Shown: piece after piece, positions 1 through 9,796 of the stretch
How positions within the stretch are numbered: the first letter of the stretch is position 1
How the letters are laid out: each line of letters starts with the position of its first letter
IMG/VR virus record: IMGVR_UViG_2711768004_000011
DNA: 10,038 nucleotides
Origin: a virus
Lineage: Duplodnaviria > Heunggongvirae > Uroviricota > Caudoviricetes
Direction: 5' to 3' (one strand)
Notes under the pieces: model-generated
What the model was told of the DNA's origin: nothing
What the model saw: only the letters and a program-made list of their open reading frames with translations
Databases searched by the model: none
Made by a program: the position numbers and the translations under genes

Positions 1-103
1 GGGACGGAAGTCGCTGTCGTTCTCAAAATCGGTGGAGCTGCATGACAAAGTCATCGGGCATTATCTGAACATAAAACACTATCAATAAGTTGGAGTCATT
101 ACC
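1..103 (+). mobile_element. IS1 right-end fragment (3' end of insB plus terminal inverted repeat); element continues past the left window edge
   Basis: Bases 1-103 match the 3' end of IS1 as I recall it. Frame 2 translates to ...GRKSLSFSKSVELHDKVIGHYLNIKHYQ with stop at 86-88 (InsB C-terminus). The terminal repeat ATCAATAAGTTGGAGTCATTACC ends at 103. Confidence 0.8.
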
Positions 104-235
104 AAACGGTTGAAATGTATGCCGCTACTTACGGGTCCTGTAATCCTCTGAATAAACCAGAGGGAAAAGATGATTTCGACAAAATTTACCGCTTCTTGGA
201 GGACCGCTATATCAAAAGCTTAGAGGACGCAGGGA

Positions 236-819: not shown

Positions 820-946
820 AGTTAAAGATTGAACCCTGCCGTCATGTTCTTACGCCTCGGGCTGGCTACTTAACCCCTGACCACTGTCTGGTAACTCGAA
901 GTATTGCCCTGCATTCTGTGGGGCGGGGTGGGTTGACGCCTGAAAC

Positions 947-989
947 AATAGCATCATTATTTTTTTTTGATGTAAATAGCATCGCTATT
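947..989. promoter_or_regulatory. operator-like palindromes (putative O_L): AATAGCATCATTATT (947-961) and AATAGCATCGCTATT (975-989)
   Basis: 975-989 is a perfect inverted repeat, AATAGC-ATC-GCTATT. It is nearly identical to the palindrome at 2086-2100 on the other side of the repressor operon. 947-961 shares the AATAGCATC half. Confidence 0.4.
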
Positions 990-1002
990 GTTTTTTGTTG
1001 GG

Positions 1003-1030
1003 GCAAGAAAAAACCACCCTAAGGTGGTTC
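1003..1030 (-). terminator. Rho-independent terminator candidate downstream of the repressor-antitoxin-toxin operon
   Basis: Stem ACCACC (1013-1018) pairs with GGTGGT (1023-1028) around a CTAA loop. On the minus strand the hairpin is followed by a T-run (plus-strand A-run 1006-1012), 16 nt past the parE stop. Confidence 0.5.
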
Positions 1031-1045
1031 TGTCGGCGGGAATAA

Positions 1046-1336
1046 TTAACTGTTTTTGCCTGGATACTGTCTTCGAGAATGCACAATATTTACTACTTCT
1101 ATGCTTGATGCTGTTACTCGGTAAAGGATGATGTAGTTAGGATGAGTTACAATTTCACGAAGACCAAGAACTCGCTCGCTTGGAGGATACAGGTAAGGAT
1201 GCTCTGTGAGCGGCAAAACGGATGTTTCAATTCGAATTTTCATTCTGCGTGCTGCCGCGGGATTTTCTTTAGCTATGTAGGCTACGATCTGGCGCAAATC
1301 ATCACGAGCAGATGGTAGCCATAAAACGGGTAACAT
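1046..1336 (-). CDS. parE: ParE/RelE-superfamily type II toxin (ParE2-like)
   Basis: 96-aa product MLPVLWLPSARDDLRQIVAYIAKENPAAARRM...HPNYIILYRV...VVNIVHSRRQYP has the characteristic ParE-family layout. Its start overlaps the stop of the upstream small ORF by 1 nt, the usual antitoxin-toxin arrangement. Confidence 0.8.
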   Translation of the reverse strand: MLPVLWLPSARDDLRQIVAYIAKENPAAARRMKIRIETSVLPLTEHPYLYPPSERVLGLREIVTHPNYIILYRVTASSIEVVNIVHSRRQYPGKNS

Positions 1337-1530
1337 TATTCACCTCTGTGAGTTGCAGCAGCAATTTGGGCAATAATTTGTTCCATTTCCGCCATTACCT
1401 CATCATGCGGAATCGCCGGGCGGGGATCCGCGAGGCTTGCTGCTACTTTGGCCCGCAGCCATTCGTTGTAACTATTTTCTTGCTCAACTGTCTCAAATTC
1501 TGAAACCATTGGGGAAAGGACTGTACTCAT
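1336..1530 (-). CDS. small antitoxin partner of ParE (PaaA2-like)
   Basis: 64-aa acidic ORF immediately upstream of and coupled to the ParE-like gene. A strong RBS (GAGGAG) sits 7 nt before the ATG. The sequence ...SPMVSEFETVEQENSYNEWLRAKVAASLADPRPAIPHDEV... resembles the PaaA2 antitoxin as I recall it. Confidence 0.65.
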   Translation of the reverse strand: MSTVLSPMVSEFETVEQENSYNEWLRAKVAASLADPRPAIPHDEVMAEMEQIIAQIAAATHRGE

Positions 1531-1549
1531 TTTACATATCTCCTCTGAT

Positions 1550-2080
1550 TTAGGCGCGACGGCCTTTTTGTGCAGCTAACCACCGCGCAACCGTACGATC
1601 CATTGATTCTTTTTTATCTTTCATCTCCTGAAGCATGTGTTCTTGATCTTCTTTCGGAAAAGCTCTGAACGTATGGATTAAATCTCGTTCCATCGGCTCT
1701 ACGGCAAACGGTAGTTCATCCTCTGTTTGTTCTGTGTCTGCTGGTAATGCGACTATGTTATCTTGCTGTGGTTCTCGACAATACATCCTTGCAATTTGCA
1801 GCAAATCTACCATGTCTGGCCTGATTGACTCAGGGGGAACTTTCAGTAAGCCAGCAAACTTTAGAACAGCCTCAAGGTTTAGTGGGGTTTGACCATTTAG
1901 GTAGTGACTTACCGCCCCTTGTGTTGAAAACCCCATAATTTCCGCCGCACGTTCCTGAGTCAATCCCAACTGAGATTTCTTTGCCATCCAGATTTCTTTC
2001 AGTCTTCTGGCGGCGTTGAGGTCGGTGTCTGACAATGATTTTCTTTTCATACATCCAATTCTAATAAGATTGCTAATCAC
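1550..2080 (-). CDS. CI-like HTH (XRE-family) repressor without S24 peptidase domain; PaaR2-like regulator
   Basis: 176-aa product with a classical HTH: LGLTQERAAEIMGFSTQGAVSHYLNGQTPLNLEAVLKFAGLL. It is divergent from the Cro-like gene and heads the antitoxin-toxin operon with a 19-nt gap. The C-terminal half shows no Ser/Lys peptidase motif. Confidence 0.7.
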   Translation of the reverse strand: MISNLIRIGCMKRKSLSDTDLNAARRLKEIWMAKKSQLGLTQERAAEIMGFSTQGAVSHYLNGQTPLNLEAVLKFAGLLKVPPESIRPDMVDLLQIARMYCREPQQDNIVALPADTEQTEDELPFAVEPMERDLIHTFRAFPKEDQEHMLQEMKDKKESMDRTVARWLAAQKGRRA

Positions 2081-2085
2081 TTTGA

Positions 2086-2125
2086 AATAGTATCACTATT
2101 TACTTTTAAAAATAACAGTGCTATT
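2086..2125. promoter_or_regulatory. divergent operator/promoter region (putative O_R): AATAGTATCACTATT (2086-2100) and AATAACAGTGCTATT (2111-2125)
   Basis: Palindrome AATAGT-ATC-ACTATT with AATAG/CTATT arms, and a second AATA...CTATT site 25 bp away. They sit in the 81-bp gap between the divergent repressor and Cro-like genes, and the motif matches 975-989. Confidence 0.45.
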
Positions 2126-2161
2126 AATTATGCATTGGTAACACATCACATAGGGCGGATT

Positions 2162-2425
2162 ATGAATCTTGGAGAATATTTGCATCATTTTCATATAACC
2201 CAGAGTTCATTTGCTGAGATTGTTGGCGCATCCCAAGGGATGGTCAGCCACGTTATAACGGGGCGTGCAAAACTTACAGGAGAAAAAATATTACGTTGGT
2301 GTGAAGCAACGGGATGGGTGGTGACCCCACATGAGATTGACAGTAAAACCTACCCCAACCCAACTGACGGCTTGCCTGCTGAGTTTCAGGCTAACACACA
2401 ACCATCGGCGGGGGTTGATTCATGA
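2162..2425 (+). CDS. Cro/YdaS-like HTH regulator (ORF-track start is TTG at 2135; ATG at 2162 more likely)
   Basis: Product MNLGEYLHHFHITQSSFAEIVGASQGMVSHVITGRAKLTGEKILRWCEATGWVVTPHEI... has an HTH pattern typical of Cro/YdaS-family proteins. It is divergent from the repressor and coupled to the next gene through an ATGA overlap. Confidence 0.65.
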   Translation: MNLGEYLHHFHITQSSFAEIVGASQGMVSHVITGRAKLTGEKILRWCEATGWVVTPHEIDSKTYPNPTDGLPAEFQANTQPSAGVDS

Positions 2426-2847
2426 AAATCAAGCATGAACACATCCGCATGGCGATGAAAGCCTGGGCGCATCCGGACGGTGAAAAAGTTCCGGCAGCTG
2501 AAATAACCAGGGTTTATTTCGAACTGGGAATGACGTTTCCGGTTCTGCATAACGACAGCAAGCACAACACGCTTTATCTCAACACCCAAAAGATTTTCCG
2601 TTGGCTGGATAAAGACACCCCTGACGCTGTTGAAAAAATTCAGGCGTTGTTACCTGCGATCGAAAGGGCAATGCCACCTCCGCTGGTGGCTCGAATGCGC
2701 AGCCACAGTTCAGCTTATTTTCGGGAACTGGTGGAGACGCATGAACGACTGGTGAGAGACGCTGATGATTTTGTCGCAGTGGCAATCGCCGGTTTCAATC
2801 AGATGAACCGTGGTGGCCCGGCAGGAAATGCTGTGGCAGTACATTGA
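2422..2847 (+). CDS. ydaT: YdaT-family protein (cII-position regulator; toxin YdaT-like domain)
   Basis: 141-aa product starts MKIKHEHI... and ends ...AVAVH, resembling Rac prophage YdaT as I recall it. Position after the cro-like gene matches the Rac ydaS-ydaT arrangement. Confidence 0.6.
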   Translation: MKIKHEHIRMAMKAWAHPDGEKVPAAEITRVYFELGMTFPVLHNDSKHNTLYLNTQKIFRWLDKDTPDAVEKIQALLPAIERAMPPPLVARMRSHSSAYFRELVETHERLVRDADDFVAVAIAGFNQMNRGGPAGNAVAVH

Positions 2848-3989: not shown

Positions 3990-5071
3990 ATGAAAAACAT
4001 TGCGGCAGCCGGGGTTCTTGAACGTATTCACAGACTTGCACCACAGGGGGCGGTTCCACCGTACCGGACGGTGGAGGAGTGGCGGGNNNNNNNNNNNNNN
4101 NNNNNNNNNNNNNNNNNNNNNNNNNNNNNNNNNNNNNNNNNNNNNNNNNNNNNNNNNNNNNNNNNNNNNNNNNNNNNNNNNNNNNNNNNNNNNNNNNNNN
4201 NNNNNNNNNNNNNNNNNNNNNNNNNNNNNNNNNNNNNNNNNNNNNNNNNNNNNNNNNNNNNNNNNNNNNNNNNNNNNNNNNNNNNNNNNNNNNNNNNNNN
4301 NNNNNNNNNNNNNNNNNNNNNNNNNNNNNNNNNNNNNNNNNNNNNNNNNNNNNNNNNNNNNNNNNNNNNNNNNNNNNNNNNNNNNNNNNNNNNNNNNNNN
4401 NNNNNNNNNNNNNNNNNNNNNNNNNNNNNNNNNNNNNNNNNNNNNNNNNNNNNNNNNNNNNNNNNNNNNNNNNNNNNNNNNNNNNNNNNNNNNNNNNNNN
4501 NNNNNNNNNNNNNNNNNNNNNNNNNNNNNNNNNNNNNNNNNNNNNNNNNNNNNNNNNNNNNNNNNNNNNNNNNNNNNNNNNNNNNNNNCAGGCCAAATCC
4601 ATAGCTGACGAACTGATGACCGGGTGCACGAATTTTGTGTTCAGCGGTAAAACCGGCACCGGGAAAAATCACCTTGCAGCGGCGATGGGTAACCGGCTGA
4701 TGGCGAAGGGGCGCAGCGTGATTATCGTCACCGAGTCTGATGTCATGAGCGTGTTGCATGACAGCTACGACAACGGCAAATCCGGTGAAAAATTTTTACA
4801 GGAGCTTTGCGGGGTTGATTTGCTGGTCCTGGATGAAATAGGCATTCAGCGGGAGACGAAAAACGAGCAGGTGGTATTGCACCAGATAATTGATCGCCGG
4901 ACAGCATCACTGTGCAGTGTCGGGATGTTAACAAACCTGAATCATGCCGCAATGAGCACGCTTCTTGGTGAGAGGATTATGGACCGCATGACCATGAACG
5001 GTTGTCGGTGGGTGACGTTTAACTGGGATAGCTGGCGTTCAAATGTCAGCTTTCCGGGAGTTGTGAAGTAA
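3990..5071 (+). CDS. DnaC-like replicative helicase loader (lambda P analogue; Rac YdaV-like), interrupted by an assembly gap
   Basis: N-terminus MKNIAAAGVLERIHRL resembles E. coli DnaC (MKNVGDLMQRL...). The post-gap part carries Walker A GKTGTGKNHLAAAMG and Walker B LLVLDEIG. The C-terminus ...WVTFNWDSWRSNV matches the DnaC C-terminus as I recall it. The two parts are in different frames across the N-run. Confidence 0.8.
4087..4588. other. assembly gap (502 N)
   Basis: Uninterrupted run of N from 4087 to 4588. Confidence 0.99.
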
Positions 5072-6884: not shown

Positions 6885-8717
6885 ATGGCCCGCATGTTTG
6901 ATACATTAGGATTTTACATTATGAATGTGCAACATTTTGATTTTTTTACAGATAATGAGTTTTCTAATCTGGAAAGATATCAAACTTGTAAAGCCATGGC
7001 CAAAGGTTATGCGGGCAATTACAAAACCGGGCAGTCAAGGTTGATGCATGCCCGCTCATACTGCTTCAGCATCGTAGCTGCATATTGGGATACCCTTGCA
7101 AAAAAGCAAAAAAGCAGCATTAAAATGAGGGCAGTACCGCACACTGTTTACATAGAAGACATTCCATGTGATGCACGCGAGCTCGCTGAACGAACAGGTG
7201 AGCTTATTGCTCAATTTCCGGCGGAGGACGCTGGATATCTGATTGGGTCAATTTATACGGTAATGCTGCCATCCGCTTACCGTTCGGAATTGGGGGCTTA
7301 CTATACCCCCCCACCTTTGGTAGCGCGTCTCTTGGACCTGGCTGAAAAGTCTGGTGTTGATTTTTCTCATGCATCGGTTATTGATCCTGCGTGTGGTGGC
7401 GGTGCATTTTTGGCACCAGTAGCCATTCGAATGTTAAAAAAAGACAAGGGGTCTTCCCCTGAATGGATGTTGAGGAGAATCAGTCGTCGTTTAAAGGGGA
7501 TAGAGATCGATCCATTTGCGGCTTGGATGAGTTTGGTATTGCTCGAATCTGTACTAATGCCACTATGTGTAAAGGTAAAACGTAGATTGCCTGAAGATAC
7601 AATTATTGTTGCTGATGCGCTTCAGCAAGATAAATTTTCTGGTTATGATCTTGTGGTAGGGAATCCGCCTTACGGACGTGTCACTCTCGATATTAAAACG
7701 AGAGAAAAATATTCTCGTTCGTTATTTGGTCATGCAAATCTATATGGATTGTTCACCGACTTAGCTGTTCGCATGGTTAAAGAGAAAACAGGAGTTATTG
7801 CATTTCTTACGCCAACTTCTTTTCTTGGTGGGCAGTATTTCACCGCGCTGCGAACCCTTTTGACCGAAAAAACTACTCCGTATGCCCTTGATTTCGTCAC
7901 TGACAGGGATGGGGTCTTTGACGATGTTCTCCAGGAAACAATGTTGACAGCATTCAAGGCGGGAGAACATAAAGTTCGGGCCCAGGTATCCTCACTTGTC
8001 CCTAAGGGGTTGAACAAAGCAAAAATTGAGAAAATAGGTAATGTTGATATAGAAAAAGGTGGAGCAACGTGGCTTTTGCCACGCGTTAAAGATGATGCCT
8101 GTTTTCTTAATGTATTAAAACAGATGTCTACGCGTTTAGCTGATCTGGGATACTCAGTCTCTACAGGTCAGTTAGTCTGGAATCGATTTAAGTCGCAGTT
8201 GCGTACGACGAAAGGAAAAAATAGCTACCCATTAGTCTGGGCGGAATCAATAACTTCAGCTGGTTTTCGTTTTAGTGCAGACAGAAAAAATCATGTTCCC
8301 TATATCGATATAACCCCACAACAGGGTTTCCTTGTGACAAAATCTGAATGTGTGCTTGTTCAGCGGACAACATCGAAGGAACAGGACAGAAGGATTTTAG
8401 CGGCAATTTTACCTCAGGGATTTATAGATGAAACTGGTGGCGTAGTAGTTGAAAACCATATTAATATTGTATATTCAAACGGATTGTTCTCTGCGGTTCG
8501 CCCTGATGTTATTGATATGCTACTTAATTCGCATGTTGTCGATCGGGCGTTCAGGTGTATAAGCGGAAGTGTTGCTGTTTCGGCCTATGAATTGAATTCA
8601 ATCCCGTTGCCTTCTCTGGAGCAGGTGATGGAGATTCAATCGTTAATTGATGCTGGCGTCCACAGACGGATTATTGAGAGAACTATCGCTGGTTTCTATG
8701 GAGTGATGATTGCATGA
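6885..8717 (+). CDS. gamma-class N6-adenine (amino) DNA methyltransferase, TaqI/Eco57I-like, with C-terminal target-recognition region; start may be ATG 6921
   Basis: Motif X-like GAYYTPPPLVARLL (~7297-7335), motif I VIDPACGGGAFL (~7383-7412) and motif IV VVGNPPYGRV (~7656-7682) occur in gamma-class order. They align with M.TaqI (ETPPEVV / LEPACAHGPFL / LGNPPYG) as I recall it. GC content is markedly lower than in the phage replication genes. Confidence 0.85.
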   Translation: MARMFDTLGFYIMNVQHFDFFTDNEFSNLERYQTCKAMAKGYAGNYKTGQSRLMHARSYCFSIVAAYWDTLAKKQKSSIKMRAVPHTVYIEDIPCDARELAERTGELIAQFPAEDAGYLIGSIYTVMLPSAYRSELGAYYTPPPLVARLLDLAEKSGVDFSHASVIDPACGGGAFLAPVAIRMLKKDKGSSPEWMLRRISRRLKGIEIDPFAAWMSLVLLESVLMPLCVKVKRRLPEDTIIVADALQQDKFSGYDLVVGNPPYGRVTLDIKTREKYSRSLFGHANLYGLFTDLAVRMVKEKTGVIAFLTPTSFLGGQYFTALRTLLTEKTTPYALDFVTDRDGVFDDVLQETMLTAFKAGEHKVRAQVSSLVPKGLNKAKIEKIGNVDIEKGGATWLLPRVKDDACFLNVLKQMSTRLADLGYSVSTGQLVWNRFKSQLRTTKGKNSYPLVWAESITSAGFRFSADRKNHVPYIDITPQQGFLVTKSECVLVQRTTSKEQDRRILAAILPQGFIDETGGVVVENHINIVYSNGLFSAVRPDVIDMLLNSHVVDRAFRCISGSVAVSAYELNSIPLPSLEQVMEIQSLIDAGVHRRIIERTIAGFYGVMIA

Positions 8718-9796
8718 ATCTGCCTGTTGTTCCCCCATTGAATGTTATCCGGGAAAGATTACAATTAATTTTCCCTGAAGGGACTGAGAATCGTGGATAT
8801 TTAATTCGGGAAATAGCTGCAAAAACAATTTTTGTCATGTTTTATGCTGGTGCGGTTGAGGGGCTGGGGCGATGGATAAGGCCCAGCCAGGTTGTAAGTA
8901 TGGGAGATTCGCAGGCTGCTCTTACTGATGATGCGTCCAGAGAAAGCTGGGTAAAGATGACTTTCTCTAAACAAAAGATAAGGCCTGCTGATGCATGGTA
9001 TGCGGAAAATACGCGTGAGCCAATACGTGATGAAACTATAAAAAATGGCCTAATACCTTGCAATGCAATTGTTGAGCGTAAAGGTATACCCACCACATCC
9101 TCTCGTCCTCGTTACAGTTTGAATCGCTCTTTTGCAGCACTCTTTGATGCCGGGCTTGAAGGAGATTCGCTGCTGAGTGCAATAAGTTCCTGGCAAGAAA
9201 ATCATTTGAACAAAGCCGCTCTTGCTAGGTTGCGTTTATTGAAATCAGGGGCAGTGATTGCTGCTGATGCCGTAGTCGTCACTTTCCCAAATGGAGAGAA
9301 GAGAACTTTAGCTCCGGGCCCGTCAAGTACAATAGCTAAGGCCGTCATCGAAGTTTTTGCTCCTAATTTTCTTAAGAATCCAACTGTGCTCTGGTTGTCT
9401 GAATCCGGGAATAAAGTTGTTGCTCAGGATGATGTATTGGCAAAAGCATTGGGGCTGAATATTGATGCCTCAAAAGCACTTCCAGATATTATTTTGATTG
9501 ATTTGGGAGAGGACCGAACGGGTTCGGACATGCTTGTAGTTTTCACTGAAGTAGTTGCGACAGATGGGCCTATAAACAGGGAACGAAAAGTTACTCTCAC
9601 TCATTTGGCTATTGACGCTGGGTTCAGCGAGAAAAATCTTGCATTCCTTACGGCATTTATGGACAGAAGTGCTCTGCCTTTTAAAAAGGCAATACCAGAA
9701 TTGGCGTGGGGATCTTATGCATGGTTTGCTTCTGAACCGGAGCACTTAATTGATCTTCGGGATGGTTATCCGGTAAAGATCAGCCAGAGAAAATGA
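8714..9796 (+). CDS. partner of the methyltransferase: putative restriction endonuclease (possibly BsuBI/PstI-like); function not established
   Basis: 360-aa ORF whose ATG overlaps the MTase stop (ATGA at 8714-8717), with the same low-GC composition. A possible degenerate nuclease core lies at ALPDIILIDLGEDRTGSDMLVVFTEVVATDG. The family assignment is from weak recall, not a search. Confidence 0.5.
   Translation: MNLPVVPPLNVIRERLQLIFPEGTENRGYLIREIAAKTIFVMFYAGAVEGLGRWIRPSQVVSMGDSQAALTDDASRESWVKMTFSKQKIRPADAWYAENTREPIRDETIKNGLIPCNAIVERKGIPTTSSRPRYSLNRSFAALFDAGLEGDSLLSAISSWQENHLNKAALARLRLLKSGAVIAADAVVVTFPNGEKRTLAPGPSSTIAKAVIEVFAPNFLKNPTVLWLSESGNKVVAQDDVLAKALGLNIDASKALPDIILIDLGEDRTGSDMLVVFTEVVATDGPINRERKVTLTHLAIDAGFSEKNLAFLTAFMDRSALPFKKAIPELAWGSYAWFASEPEHLIDLRDGYPVKISQRK

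Follow-up and report, generated by a model that had tools for sequence, protein, structure and literature searches.

What is known about the systems most closely related to this locus? The cryptic prophage CP-933P of E. coli O157:H7 carries an immunity switch and a paaR2-paaA2-parE2 operon that have been dissected experimentally (Jurenas et al. 2021, PMC8630535). EMSA, footprinting, and reporter experiments demonstrated PaaR2 operators at O_R and at O_L/P_L; PaaR2 and YdaS both footprint the CP-933P intergenic region; P_R, P_RM, and P_L are each repressed by PaaR2 and by YdaS; and P_RM is activated by low PaaR2 (PMC8630535). The same study reported that paaR2 and cI are leaderless, that PaaR2 is octameric, and that PaaA2 has no DNA-binding domain, regulation being provided by a third component (PMC8630535).

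The DNA analyzed here, the whole 10,038-nucleotide stretch of a Caudoviricetes record (IMGVR_UViG_2711768004_000011; hereafter the window), has the gene order and orientation of the CP-933P switch. A leftward operon encodes an immunity repressor (1550..2050, minus strand; 166 aa), a PaaA2-family antitoxin (1336..1530, minus strand; 64 aa; Pfam PaaA2, E = 3e-23; PDB 3zbe PaaA2, E = 1.4e-23), and a ParE-family toxin (1046..1336, minus strand; 96 aa; Pfam ParE_toxin, E = 1.8e-17; 67% identity to CP-933P ParE2), the same regulator-antitoxin-toxin composition as in CP-933P. The divergent rightward operon contains a Cro-like helix-turn-helix gene (2162..2425, plus strand; 87 aa) and ydaT (2422..2847, plus strand; 141 aa). 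YdaT, a functional analogue of CII, matches PDB 3c4r (E = 4e-79), Pfam YdaT_toxin, and the YdaT of CP-933P (PDB 8bt1, E = 3e-70). As in CP-933P, the operon ending in ydaT is accompanied by a YdaT operator: TTGATTCATGAAAATCAA, at the cro/ydaT junction (2415..2432), is an exact match to the published motif TTGATT-N6-AATCAA (PMC9986795). Both loci also place O_R between divergent promoters and O_L/P_L beyond parE, and the same conserved leader lies to the left of O_L in both, the mosaic junction falling precisely at the edge of the operator. An Rfam search of the window returned no matches, and hence no known RNA element accounts for the region.

The Rac (RacR/YdaS/YdaT) and Qin (DicA/DicC, ydfABC-dicB) regions of E. 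coli K-12, compared by annotation and from the cited papers, likewise have a YdaT-family gene after a cro-like gene; they differ from the window in their repressors and operator sequences and in having no toxin-antitoxin (TA) cargo beside the repressor. A further likeness is that, in an intact relative (locus L001), the early-left operon is annotated as the ydfA (DUF1391)/ydfB/ydfC/dicB type.

The repressor is modular, to judge from its domain matches, and joins a lambda-CI-type DNA-binding domain to a PaaR2-type C-terminal module. A lambda-CI-like five-helix N-terminal domain (residues 1-91) is followed by a disordered linker (residues 93-112) and a helical C-terminal domain common to PaaR2 (residues 123-166). 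Residues 2-81 match the lambda CI N-terminal domain (phmmer, PDB; E = 3e-9), a homology that includes the basic N-terminal arm, and the residues matching lambda E34 and D38 in the alignment are Glu and Glu. The top ten PDB matches of the AF2 N-terminal model are all lambda CI N-terminal domain structures at 33-40% identity, with target-normalized TM values of 0.84-0.93 for eight isolated N-terminal domain chains and 0.40 for two lambda-186 hybrid repressor chains. Pfam identifies only HTH_3 and HTH_31 in the repressor and no S24/LexA-like C-terminal domain, and RecA-stimulated self-cleavage is therefore not expected; in this respect the protein resembles PaaR2, which also lacks an S24 domain, and differs from lambda CI, in whose place of an S24/LexA-like domain it has a short helical module. 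AF2 models the C-terminal part as a disordered linker and two helices with moderate model confidence. Identity to the C-terminal domain of PaaR2 is 52% across the last 44 residues (E = 5e-15), and it is only over these residues, not over the whole length, that the two regulators align. A sequence-only reading of this DNA had given the repressor 176 aa, a length that we correct to 166 aa from the ATG at 2050 (MKRK start); this start is the one annotated in RefSeq for a locus of 99% identity, and it is also used by all homologues and by the lambda CI alignment, and the GTG at 2080 falls within the predicted P_RM -35.

What does such a repressor recognize? We propose that dyads of the consensus AATAGY-N3-RCTATT serve, very probably, as operators in the immunity switch of a lambdoid prophage, on the basis of their sequence, positions, and statistics, of domain homologies, and of comparative conservation. 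The consensus is matched exactly at 975-989 (AATAGCATCGCTATT) and at 2086-2100 (AATAGTATCACTATT), and one-arm-mismatch variants lie at 947-961 (AATAGCATCATTATT) and 2111-2125 (AATAACAGTGCTATT). Measured from start to start, the sites of the 947/975 pair are 28 bp apart and those of the 2086/2111 pair 25 bp, and 1111 bp separate the two clusters. A motif search of the window thus recovered the dyads that the sequence-only reading had described, at its coordinates, and agreed that the two exact sites are unlike only at two symmetric positions, 6 and 10. Some details need amending. The 15-bp "palindrome" has inverted arms but is strictly a 6-3-6 inverted repeat, its centre triplet ATC being non-palindromic; the variant sites at 25-28 bp are present, but the 28-bp spacing at O_L is not conserved (24-28 bp in relatives); and O_R has a third site, a weaker one at 2063-2077, that had been overlooked. 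Furthermore, among relatives position 6 varies as Y and position 10 as R, each independently of the other, and on this comparison the C/G versus T/A difference between the exact sites is not a constrained covariation.

Both clusters lie in AT-rich regions, where palindromes might arise by chance, and the two perfect sites are able to form hairpins of 6-7 bp, as a hairpin or terminator would. The observed site count was never reached in shuffled sequence, however. Allowing up to three mismatches to the whole 15-bp motif, the window holds 7 strand-hits against 0.72 expected, a number equaled in 0/200 dinucleotide shuffles; allowing one mismatch in the 12 arm positions, it holds 4 sites against 0.096 expected (0/2000 shuffles); and when the count is confined to the two intergenic regions, 0.006 sites are expected (0/20000 shuffles). 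The hairpins, at -3.2 and -3.3 kcal/mol for the perfect sites, are weak, and neither variant site folds, for which reasons we reject the hairpin/terminator reading. Conserved arms with a varying centre over 60 loci are likewise at odds with chance or hairpin formation. A methylase and endonuclease pair at 6885-9796 raises another reading, that the dyads are restriction-modification C-boxes, but we reject this one as well, because L001 and similar loci keep the motif without the restriction-modification genes. Taken as one class, chance palindromes, hairpins or terminators, and C-boxes are a scarcely credible account of the dyads.

The proposed operators sit on the predicted P_R, P_RM, and P_L much as those of lambda do. 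O_R1 (2111..2125; AATAAC-AGT-GCTATT, one arm mismatch) overlaps the -10 of a predicted rightward P_R (2099..2127, plus strand; -35 TTTACT at 2099-2104, 17-bp spacer, -10 TATTAA at 2122-2127), which was read from the sequence and lies below the threshold of a promoter consensus scan of the window. O_R2 (2086..2100; perfect AATAGT-ATC-ACTATT), with its centre 43 bp 5' of the repressor ATG, overlaps the P_R -35 and adjoins the -35 of a predicted P_RM (2058..2086, minus strand; -35 TTCAAA at 2086..2081, 17-bp spacer, -10 TAGAAT at 2063..2058) that was found by the consensus scan. The P_RM -10 ends 7 nt ahead of the ATG at 2050, a distance that implies a leaderless repressor mRNA in this window. 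The O_R3 candidate (2063..2077; AATAAG-ATT-GCTAAT, three arm mismatches) lies within predicted P_RM and, taken alone, is not significant by arm-mismatch statistics; at its position (-27/-26 from the repressor ATG), Citrobacter and Rouxiella-type relatives have sites with one mismatch.

On the left, O_L1 (947..961; AATAGC-ATC-ATTATT, one arm mismatch) and O_L2 (975..989; perfect AATAGC-ATC-GCTATT) overlap the -10 and the -35, respectively, of a predicted P_L (945..976, minus strand; -35 TTTACA at 976..971, -10 TATTGT at 950..945), which was read from the sequence together with an alignment of 26 unique O_L regions and is assigned on the model of PL933P (PMC8630535). The spacer of P_L measures 20 bp here and 17 bp in most relatives, and the O_L1 position is kept in 46/46 loci with a 166-aa repressor. 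Both P_R and P_L are weak matches to the promoter consensus, and repeat analysis shows the promoter-operator unit of P_R duplicated at O_L/P_L. Between O_L and parE, a terminator-like hairpin (1007..1034, minus strand; ACCACC-TTAG-GGTGGT and then a T-run) would stop transcription of the repressor-paaA-parE operon; the aligned O_L regions retain this hairpin, although the consensus scan of the window did not list it. Genes, predicted promoters, conservation, and the CP-933P precedent therefore all support the earlier description of O_L/O_R-like sites flanking the repressor-TA operon.

The comparative evidence comes from 60 loci (310 kb) with TQGAVSHY in the repressor. Every site that has no more than one mismatch (217/217) lies at -75, -50, or -27 relative to the repressor ATG or immediately after the end of the repressor operon, with none elsewhere in the 310 kb, and this placement holds over four architectures of the repressor, whether TA cargo is present or not. 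No variation occurs in the AATAG arms of the 20 unique O_R and 26 unique O_L sequences; the centre triplet and positions 6/10, by contrast, are variable. Every homologous immunity region that we examined has the motif at O_R and at O_L alike, and a search over the 60 loci for relatives that keep the repressor helix and have lost the motif found none. The motif also recurs, with its relative placement unchanged, in loci that have 153- and 156-aa repressors and no TA genes, O_L there following directly after the repressor gene.

These last loci bear on a further explanation, that the dyads are autoregulatory sites of a PaaA-ParE complex, in the manner of a classical type II TA operon. The operon that they flank does contain TA genes, but loci without TA genes keep the motif, the homologous TA genes of CP-933P come without it, and PaaA2 has no DNA-binding domain (PMC8630535). 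We consider autoregulation by PaaA-ParE a most improbable origin of the dyads and reject it.

Do both regulators read the proposed operators? Every motif-bearing locus also has a homologous Cro-like gene (44-85% identity). The conservation signal would consequently fit the Cro-like protein (2162-2425) alone or the repressor alone, and, because the two genes co-vary, the comparative data cannot tell which protein, or both, reads the sites. The recognition helices, however, are nearly identical (TQGAVSH in the repressor, SQGMVSH in the Cro-like protein), and the helix-turn-helix regions of the two proteins are similar (E = 5e-7). In lambdoid phages, CI and Cro as a rule share their operators, which also counts against a single reader. 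In CP-933P, the region protected by PaaR2 is protected by YdaS as well (PMC8630535). It is thus unlikely that the dyads serve one of the two proteins only.

How would shared operators work as a switch? We propose that each AATAG arm is contacted by one lambda-CI-type helix-turn-helix of a repressor dimer, with 10 bp from one arm centre to the other, and that the central triplet is not read. Repressor at O_R1 and O_R2 would cover the -10 and -35 of P_R and turn off the cro-like/ydaT operon. O_R2, at -43 of a leaderless P_RM, would occupy the position from which lambda CI and low-dose PaaR2 stimulate their own promoters, and the weak O_R3 inside P_RM could provide negative autoregulation at high repressor. 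Likewise, O_L1 and O_L2 would cover P_L, the putative promoter of an early-left operon of the ydfA type. The Cro-like protein, by virtue of its near-identical recognition helix, probably uses the same sites in another order of preference. Finally, the PaaR2-type C-terminal helices probably mediate dimerization and higher-order assembly, in which case adjacent dimers 25 bp apart could bind cooperatively and an O_L/O_R loop over 1.1 kb could form. The octameric state of PaaR2, whose C-terminal domain is homologous, gives indirect support for such cooperativity and looping (PMC8630535).

This arrangement is close to that of lambda, with multiple dyads between the predicted divergent repressor and cro promoters, a second cluster of the same motif at the predicted early-left promoter, and P_L and P_R promoter-operator units that are duplicates of each other. 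The tripartite O_R of the window has 25 and 23 bp between site centres, compared with 24 and 23 bp in lambda, and the O_R2 centre lies at about -43 from the predicted leaderless P_RM start, compared with about -42 in lambda. The differences are a 15-bp operator (a 6-3-6 dyad) whose half-site is not that of lambda, two O_L sites instead of three, an O_L-to-O_R distance of 1.1 kb rather than about 2.4 kb, and a TA pair as cargo in place of rexAB.

In comparison to CP-933P, neither the repressor N-terminal domain nor the Cro-like protein can be aligned to its counterpart, PaaR2 or YdaS, and the operators differ as well: the GTTTAGTAA / TTTAGT-N4-ACTAAA repeats of CP-933P are found in neither O_R nor O_L of the window, and AATAGY-N3-RCTATT is absent from the CP-933P locus. 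The window has three O_R and two O_L dyads, whereas CP-933P is reported to have four inverted repeats and three operators. Because DNA-binding domain, Cro, and operators are all unlike those of CP-933P, a different immunity specificity is predicted, and by these comparisons the window system appears to be a heteroimmune relative of the CP-933P switch, one in which both operator clusters have changed along with Cro and the N-terminal domain of the repressor while the TA cargo and YdaT stayed.

The immunity type is found in thousands of sequenced Shigella sonnei and E. coli assemblies, and also in Citrobacter, Yersinia, and Rouxiella prophages. In species-representative genomes, a single-protein query found no relative, and a query with the N-terminal domain alignment gave three useful loci (Citrobacter, Yersinia, and Rouxiella), the rest being generic helix-turn-helix proteins that we ignored. 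No sequenced phage has this immunity region, the best match covering 29%. Full-length matches occur in 72 E. coli genomes, none of them O157:H7; PaaR1 of the O157:H7 prophage CP-933M is for this reason probably not of the 166-aa type. A literal literature search with the four motif strings found no paper, and a search on paaR1/paaA1/parE1 found nothing on operators. Examined for covariation of helix and operator, more distant relatives (L077-L098; 56-57% N-terminal domain identity, altered recognition helix) have candidate dyads, among them AATAT-N5-ATATT and ATTAGT-N3-GCTAAT, that do not agree between O_R and O_L. What is gained is an operator consensus, AATAG-Y-N3-R-CTATT, and a predicted promoter map of use in annotating prophage switches and in studying TA genes embedded in immunity regions. 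Current understanding is unchallenged: the architecture is that of textbook lambda, and the closest system, CP-933P, was already dissected experimentally.

Finally, we note a T9 homopolymer (960..968) between O_L1 and O_L2, within the predicted P_L spacer. In near-identical S. sonnei and E. coli loci this run has 5, 6, 8, or 9 residues, and its length sets the P_L spacer at 16-20 bp and the O_L site spacing at 24-28 bp. Because the run varies in length, the 28-bp O_L spacing is not a conserved design feature, and the 24-28 bp range, as read from these loci, speaks against a strict helical phase as the basis of cooperative binding at O_L. There is a slim chance that the run is slippage-prone and acts as a phase-variable element within a prophage operator; if so, early-left expression of the ydfA/dicB type and repressor cooperativity at O_L would be heritably variable between lineages.

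What is the basis for the proposed O_L/O_R-like control in this lambdoid prophage immunity region? The leftward genes encode an HTH repressor (1550-2050), a PaaA2-family antitoxin (1336-1530) and a ParE toxin (1046-1336), with a terminator-like hairpin at 1007-1034 and a DUF1391/ydfA-type gene past the left sites; the rightward genes encode a Cro-like HTH protein (2162-2425) and YdaT (2422-2847), with replication genes next. The sequence-only reading had placed two perfect palindromes, O_L2 (975-989, AATAGCATCGCTATT) and O_R2 (2086-2100, AATAGTATCACTATT), and two variants, O_L1 (947-961, AATAGCATCATTATT) and O_R1 (2111-2125, AATAACAGTGCTATT), around the repressor operon, and all four are present with those sequences and coordinates. 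Its estimates of about 1.1 kb between the clusters and 25-28 bp within the pairs agree with the measured 1111 bp and start-to-start spacings of 28 bp (left pair) and 25 bp (right pair). All four sites are inverted repeats of 6-3-6 form (AATAGY-N3-RCTATT); the central ATC is itself non-palindromic, and the 10 bp between arm centres is the distance expected of an HTH dimer bound to one face of the helix. With up to three mismatches allowed, the pattern gives 7 strand-hits against 0.72 expected, a number reached in 0 of 200 shuffles. When the 12 arm positions alone are scored, 4 sites with at most one mismatch are found against 0.096 expected per window (0/2000 shuffles), and shuffling the two AT-rich intergenic regions alone gives an expectation of 0.006 (0/20000 shuffles). 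Besides these four, the 10-kb window contains no site with two or fewer arm mismatches. A hairpin role for the dyads was rejected: the perfect sites fold at just -3.2 and -3.3 kcal/mol, which is negligible, and the variants do not fold.

The comparison drew on 3 genomic and 80 viral-contig loci that encode relatives of the repressor N-terminal domain, plus L001 (an intact E. coli relative) and L002; the test set was the 60 loci (310 kb) whose repressor has the helix TQGAVSHY. Every site with at most one arm mismatch (217/217) lies at approximately -75, -50 or -27 relative to the repressor ATG, or immediately 3' of the repressor operon, and none occurs elsewhere in the 310 kb; loss of the motif with the genes conserved was looked for and not seen in these 60 loci. 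Placement is the same in four repressor architectures: the 166-aa type with TA cargo, the 240-aa type with a second HTH (Citrobacter), and the 153-aa (Rouxiella) and 156-aa (Yersinia) types, both of which are without TA genes and have the left sites directly after the repressor gene. In the 166-aa family, compared over 20 unique O_R and 26 unique O_L sequences, the arms AATAG and CTATT do not vary, the centre triplet is unconstrained, and position 6 (Y) and position 10 (R) vary independently of each other; therefore the symmetric C/G versus T/A difference between the perfect sites, which had been singled out earlier, does not reflect constrained covariation. The AATAG motif is not evident in viral contigs L077-L098, whose repressors are 56-57% identical in the N-terminal domain and have a changed recognition helix, such as ETQSTVSHY. 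Candidate dyads in these contigs differ, and they yielded no consistent operator.

The sites also overlap predicted promoters. O_R2 covers the -35 (TTTACT) and O_R1 the -10 (TATTAA) of a predicted rightward P_R. The minus-strand TTCAAA-17-TAGAAT (2086..2058), the predicted P_RM, stops 7 nt short of the repressor ATG (2050), which implies that the repressor mRNA would be leaderless, like those of cI and paaR2. O_R2, centred 43 bp upstream of the repressor start, adjoins the predicted P_RM -35, and we infer P_RM activation. A candidate third O_R dyad (2063-2077, AATAAGATTGCTAAT) has three arm mismatches, lies inside the predicted P_RM and is not significant alone; the equivalent position has one-mismatch sites in Citrobacter and Rouxiella-type loci. 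Centre-to-centre distances within O_R are 25 and 23 bp, nearly those of lambda O_R. Similarly, a predicted leftward P_L has its -35 (TTTACA) overlapped by O_L2 and its -10 (TATTGT) by O_L1, and the left and right promoter-operator units form a 26-nt direct repeat. Site statistics, conserved positions and promoter overlap thus support the proposed O_L/O_R-like operators.

A T9 homopolymer (960-968) lies between O_L1 and O_L2, inside the predicted P_L spacer. Across 15 near-identical loci this T-run measures 5, 6, 8 or 9 nt, giving O_L site spacings of 24-28 bp and predicted P_L spacers of 16-20 bp. The T9 run of this window makes its spacer 20 bp long, and its predicted P_L may therefore be weak. 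Binding to the paired sites may be cooperative, and the variable spacing argues against strict cooperativity at O_L. Either slippage or a homopolymer assembly error could explain the variation.

Which protein would read the dyads? The repressor, initially given as 176 aa, is 166 aa long from its ATG; RefSeq annotation of a 99% identical E. coli locus uses this start, all homologues begin with MKRK, and the alignment to lambda CI starts at residue 2. Residues 2-81 match the lambda CI N-terminal domain (E = 3e-9), basic N-terminal arm included. In the AlphaFold model, five confident helices (aa 8-91) are followed by a disordered linker (93-112) and then by two C-terminal helices. The ten PDB structures that match the model best are all of the lambda CI N-terminal domain, and their target-normalised TM-scores are 0.84-0.93 for 8 isolated-domain chains and 0.40 for 2 chains of a longer lambda-186 hybrid repressor. 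Residues 123-166 are 52% identical to the C-terminus of PaaR2 from CP-933P, a cryptic prophage of E. coli O157:H7 (E = 5e-15), and no S24 peptidase domain was found in the repressor, which is chimeric, joining a known lambda-CI-like module (N-terminal) to a known PaaR2-type one (C-terminal). The exact protein occurs in approximately 6000 assembly blocks, chromosomes among them (Shigella sonnei, per sources); 2 of 5426 complete E. coli genomes carry this version and about 70 more an 80% identical one. Proteins P0013-P0023 (240-255 aa) are tandem two-HTH repressors, in which the same lambda-like domain is followed by a second, different HTH resembling the 132-aa P0042 family and then by the PaaR2-type domain; the two-HTH loci examined (L004, L062-L065; 240 aa) keep AATAG dyads at -50 and -27 and also downstream of the gene.

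A homologous Cro-like gene is present in all motif-bearing loci, so the comparison cannot tell this protein from the repressor as reader. The two HTHs are related (E = 5e-7; helices SQGMVSH and TQGAVSH), which fits operators common to both proteins, the arrangement seen in lambda and CP-933P. Reading by the TA complex is unlikely, since PaaA2 has no DNA-binding domain (PMC8630535) and the motif is kept in loci without TA genes.

We located the CP-933P locus with the published paaR2 primers. In CP-933P, PaaR2, YdaS and YdaT are the CI, Cro and CII analogues (Jurenas et al. 2021, PMC8630535). PaaR2 and YdaS footprint a 97-bp intergenic region with the repeat consensus GTTTAGTAA, and both repress P_R, P_RM and P_L, the last lying beyond parE2 with similar operators; P_RM is stimulated by low PaaR2, the paaR2 mRNA is leaderless, and PaaR2 is octameric, without a RecA-cleavage motif (PMC8630535). 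The window keeps the TA genes (ParE is 67% identical), YdaT, its exact operator and the repressor C-terminal domain. However, its repressor N-terminal domain is not alignable with PaaR2, nor its Cro-like protein with YdaS; the CP-933P locus lacks the window motif, and no repeats of CP-933P type occur in the control regions of the window. Sequence left of O_L is common to both prophages up to ...GGGGTGGGTTG, and divergence begins exactly at the start of the operators. Differing N-terminal domain, Cro and operators, next to shared left sequence ending at the operator edge, mark this immunity region, as judged by sequence, as a heteroimmune relative of CP-933P. It is a new predicted immunity specificity within a well-understood kind of system, that of lambda-type O_L/O_R control in a PaaR2-type repressor-TA context; a motif search of the searchable library found no paper on the motif, and no sequenced phage with this immunity region was found. 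O_L-O_R looping would be plausible because the repressor shares its C-terminal domain with octameric PaaR2.

Many E. coli phages with unrelated cI genes carry the GC-rich segment immediately left of O_L (850-935) at 95-97% identity; it is also common to CP-933P, and the mosaic junction coincides exactly with the operator edge. This segment presumably forms the 5' leader of the early-left transcript, and Rfam gave no match to it. At the cro-like/ydaT junction, the place expected for a P_RE analogue, a YdaT operator (TTGATTCATGAAAATCAA, 2415-2432) matches the published TTGATT-N6-AATCAA exactly (PMC9986795). A run of N (masked or unassembled) occupies about 4085-4580 in the replication-gene region, and ORFs spanning it are artefacts. 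Window 1-105 resembles what we take to be an IS1 end, and in complete genomes with the same prophage (L099-L102) IS1 transposase genes directly adjoin the matching point; the early-left operon is therefore truncated, and the prophage is probably cryptic. Finally, we note that 6885-9796 encodes an Eco57I/N6-adenine methylase-like protein (610 aa) and, overlapping it, a BsuBI/PstI-family restriction endonuclease (360 aa), a pair that looks like restriction-modification cargo; L001 has no restriction-modification genes at that position.
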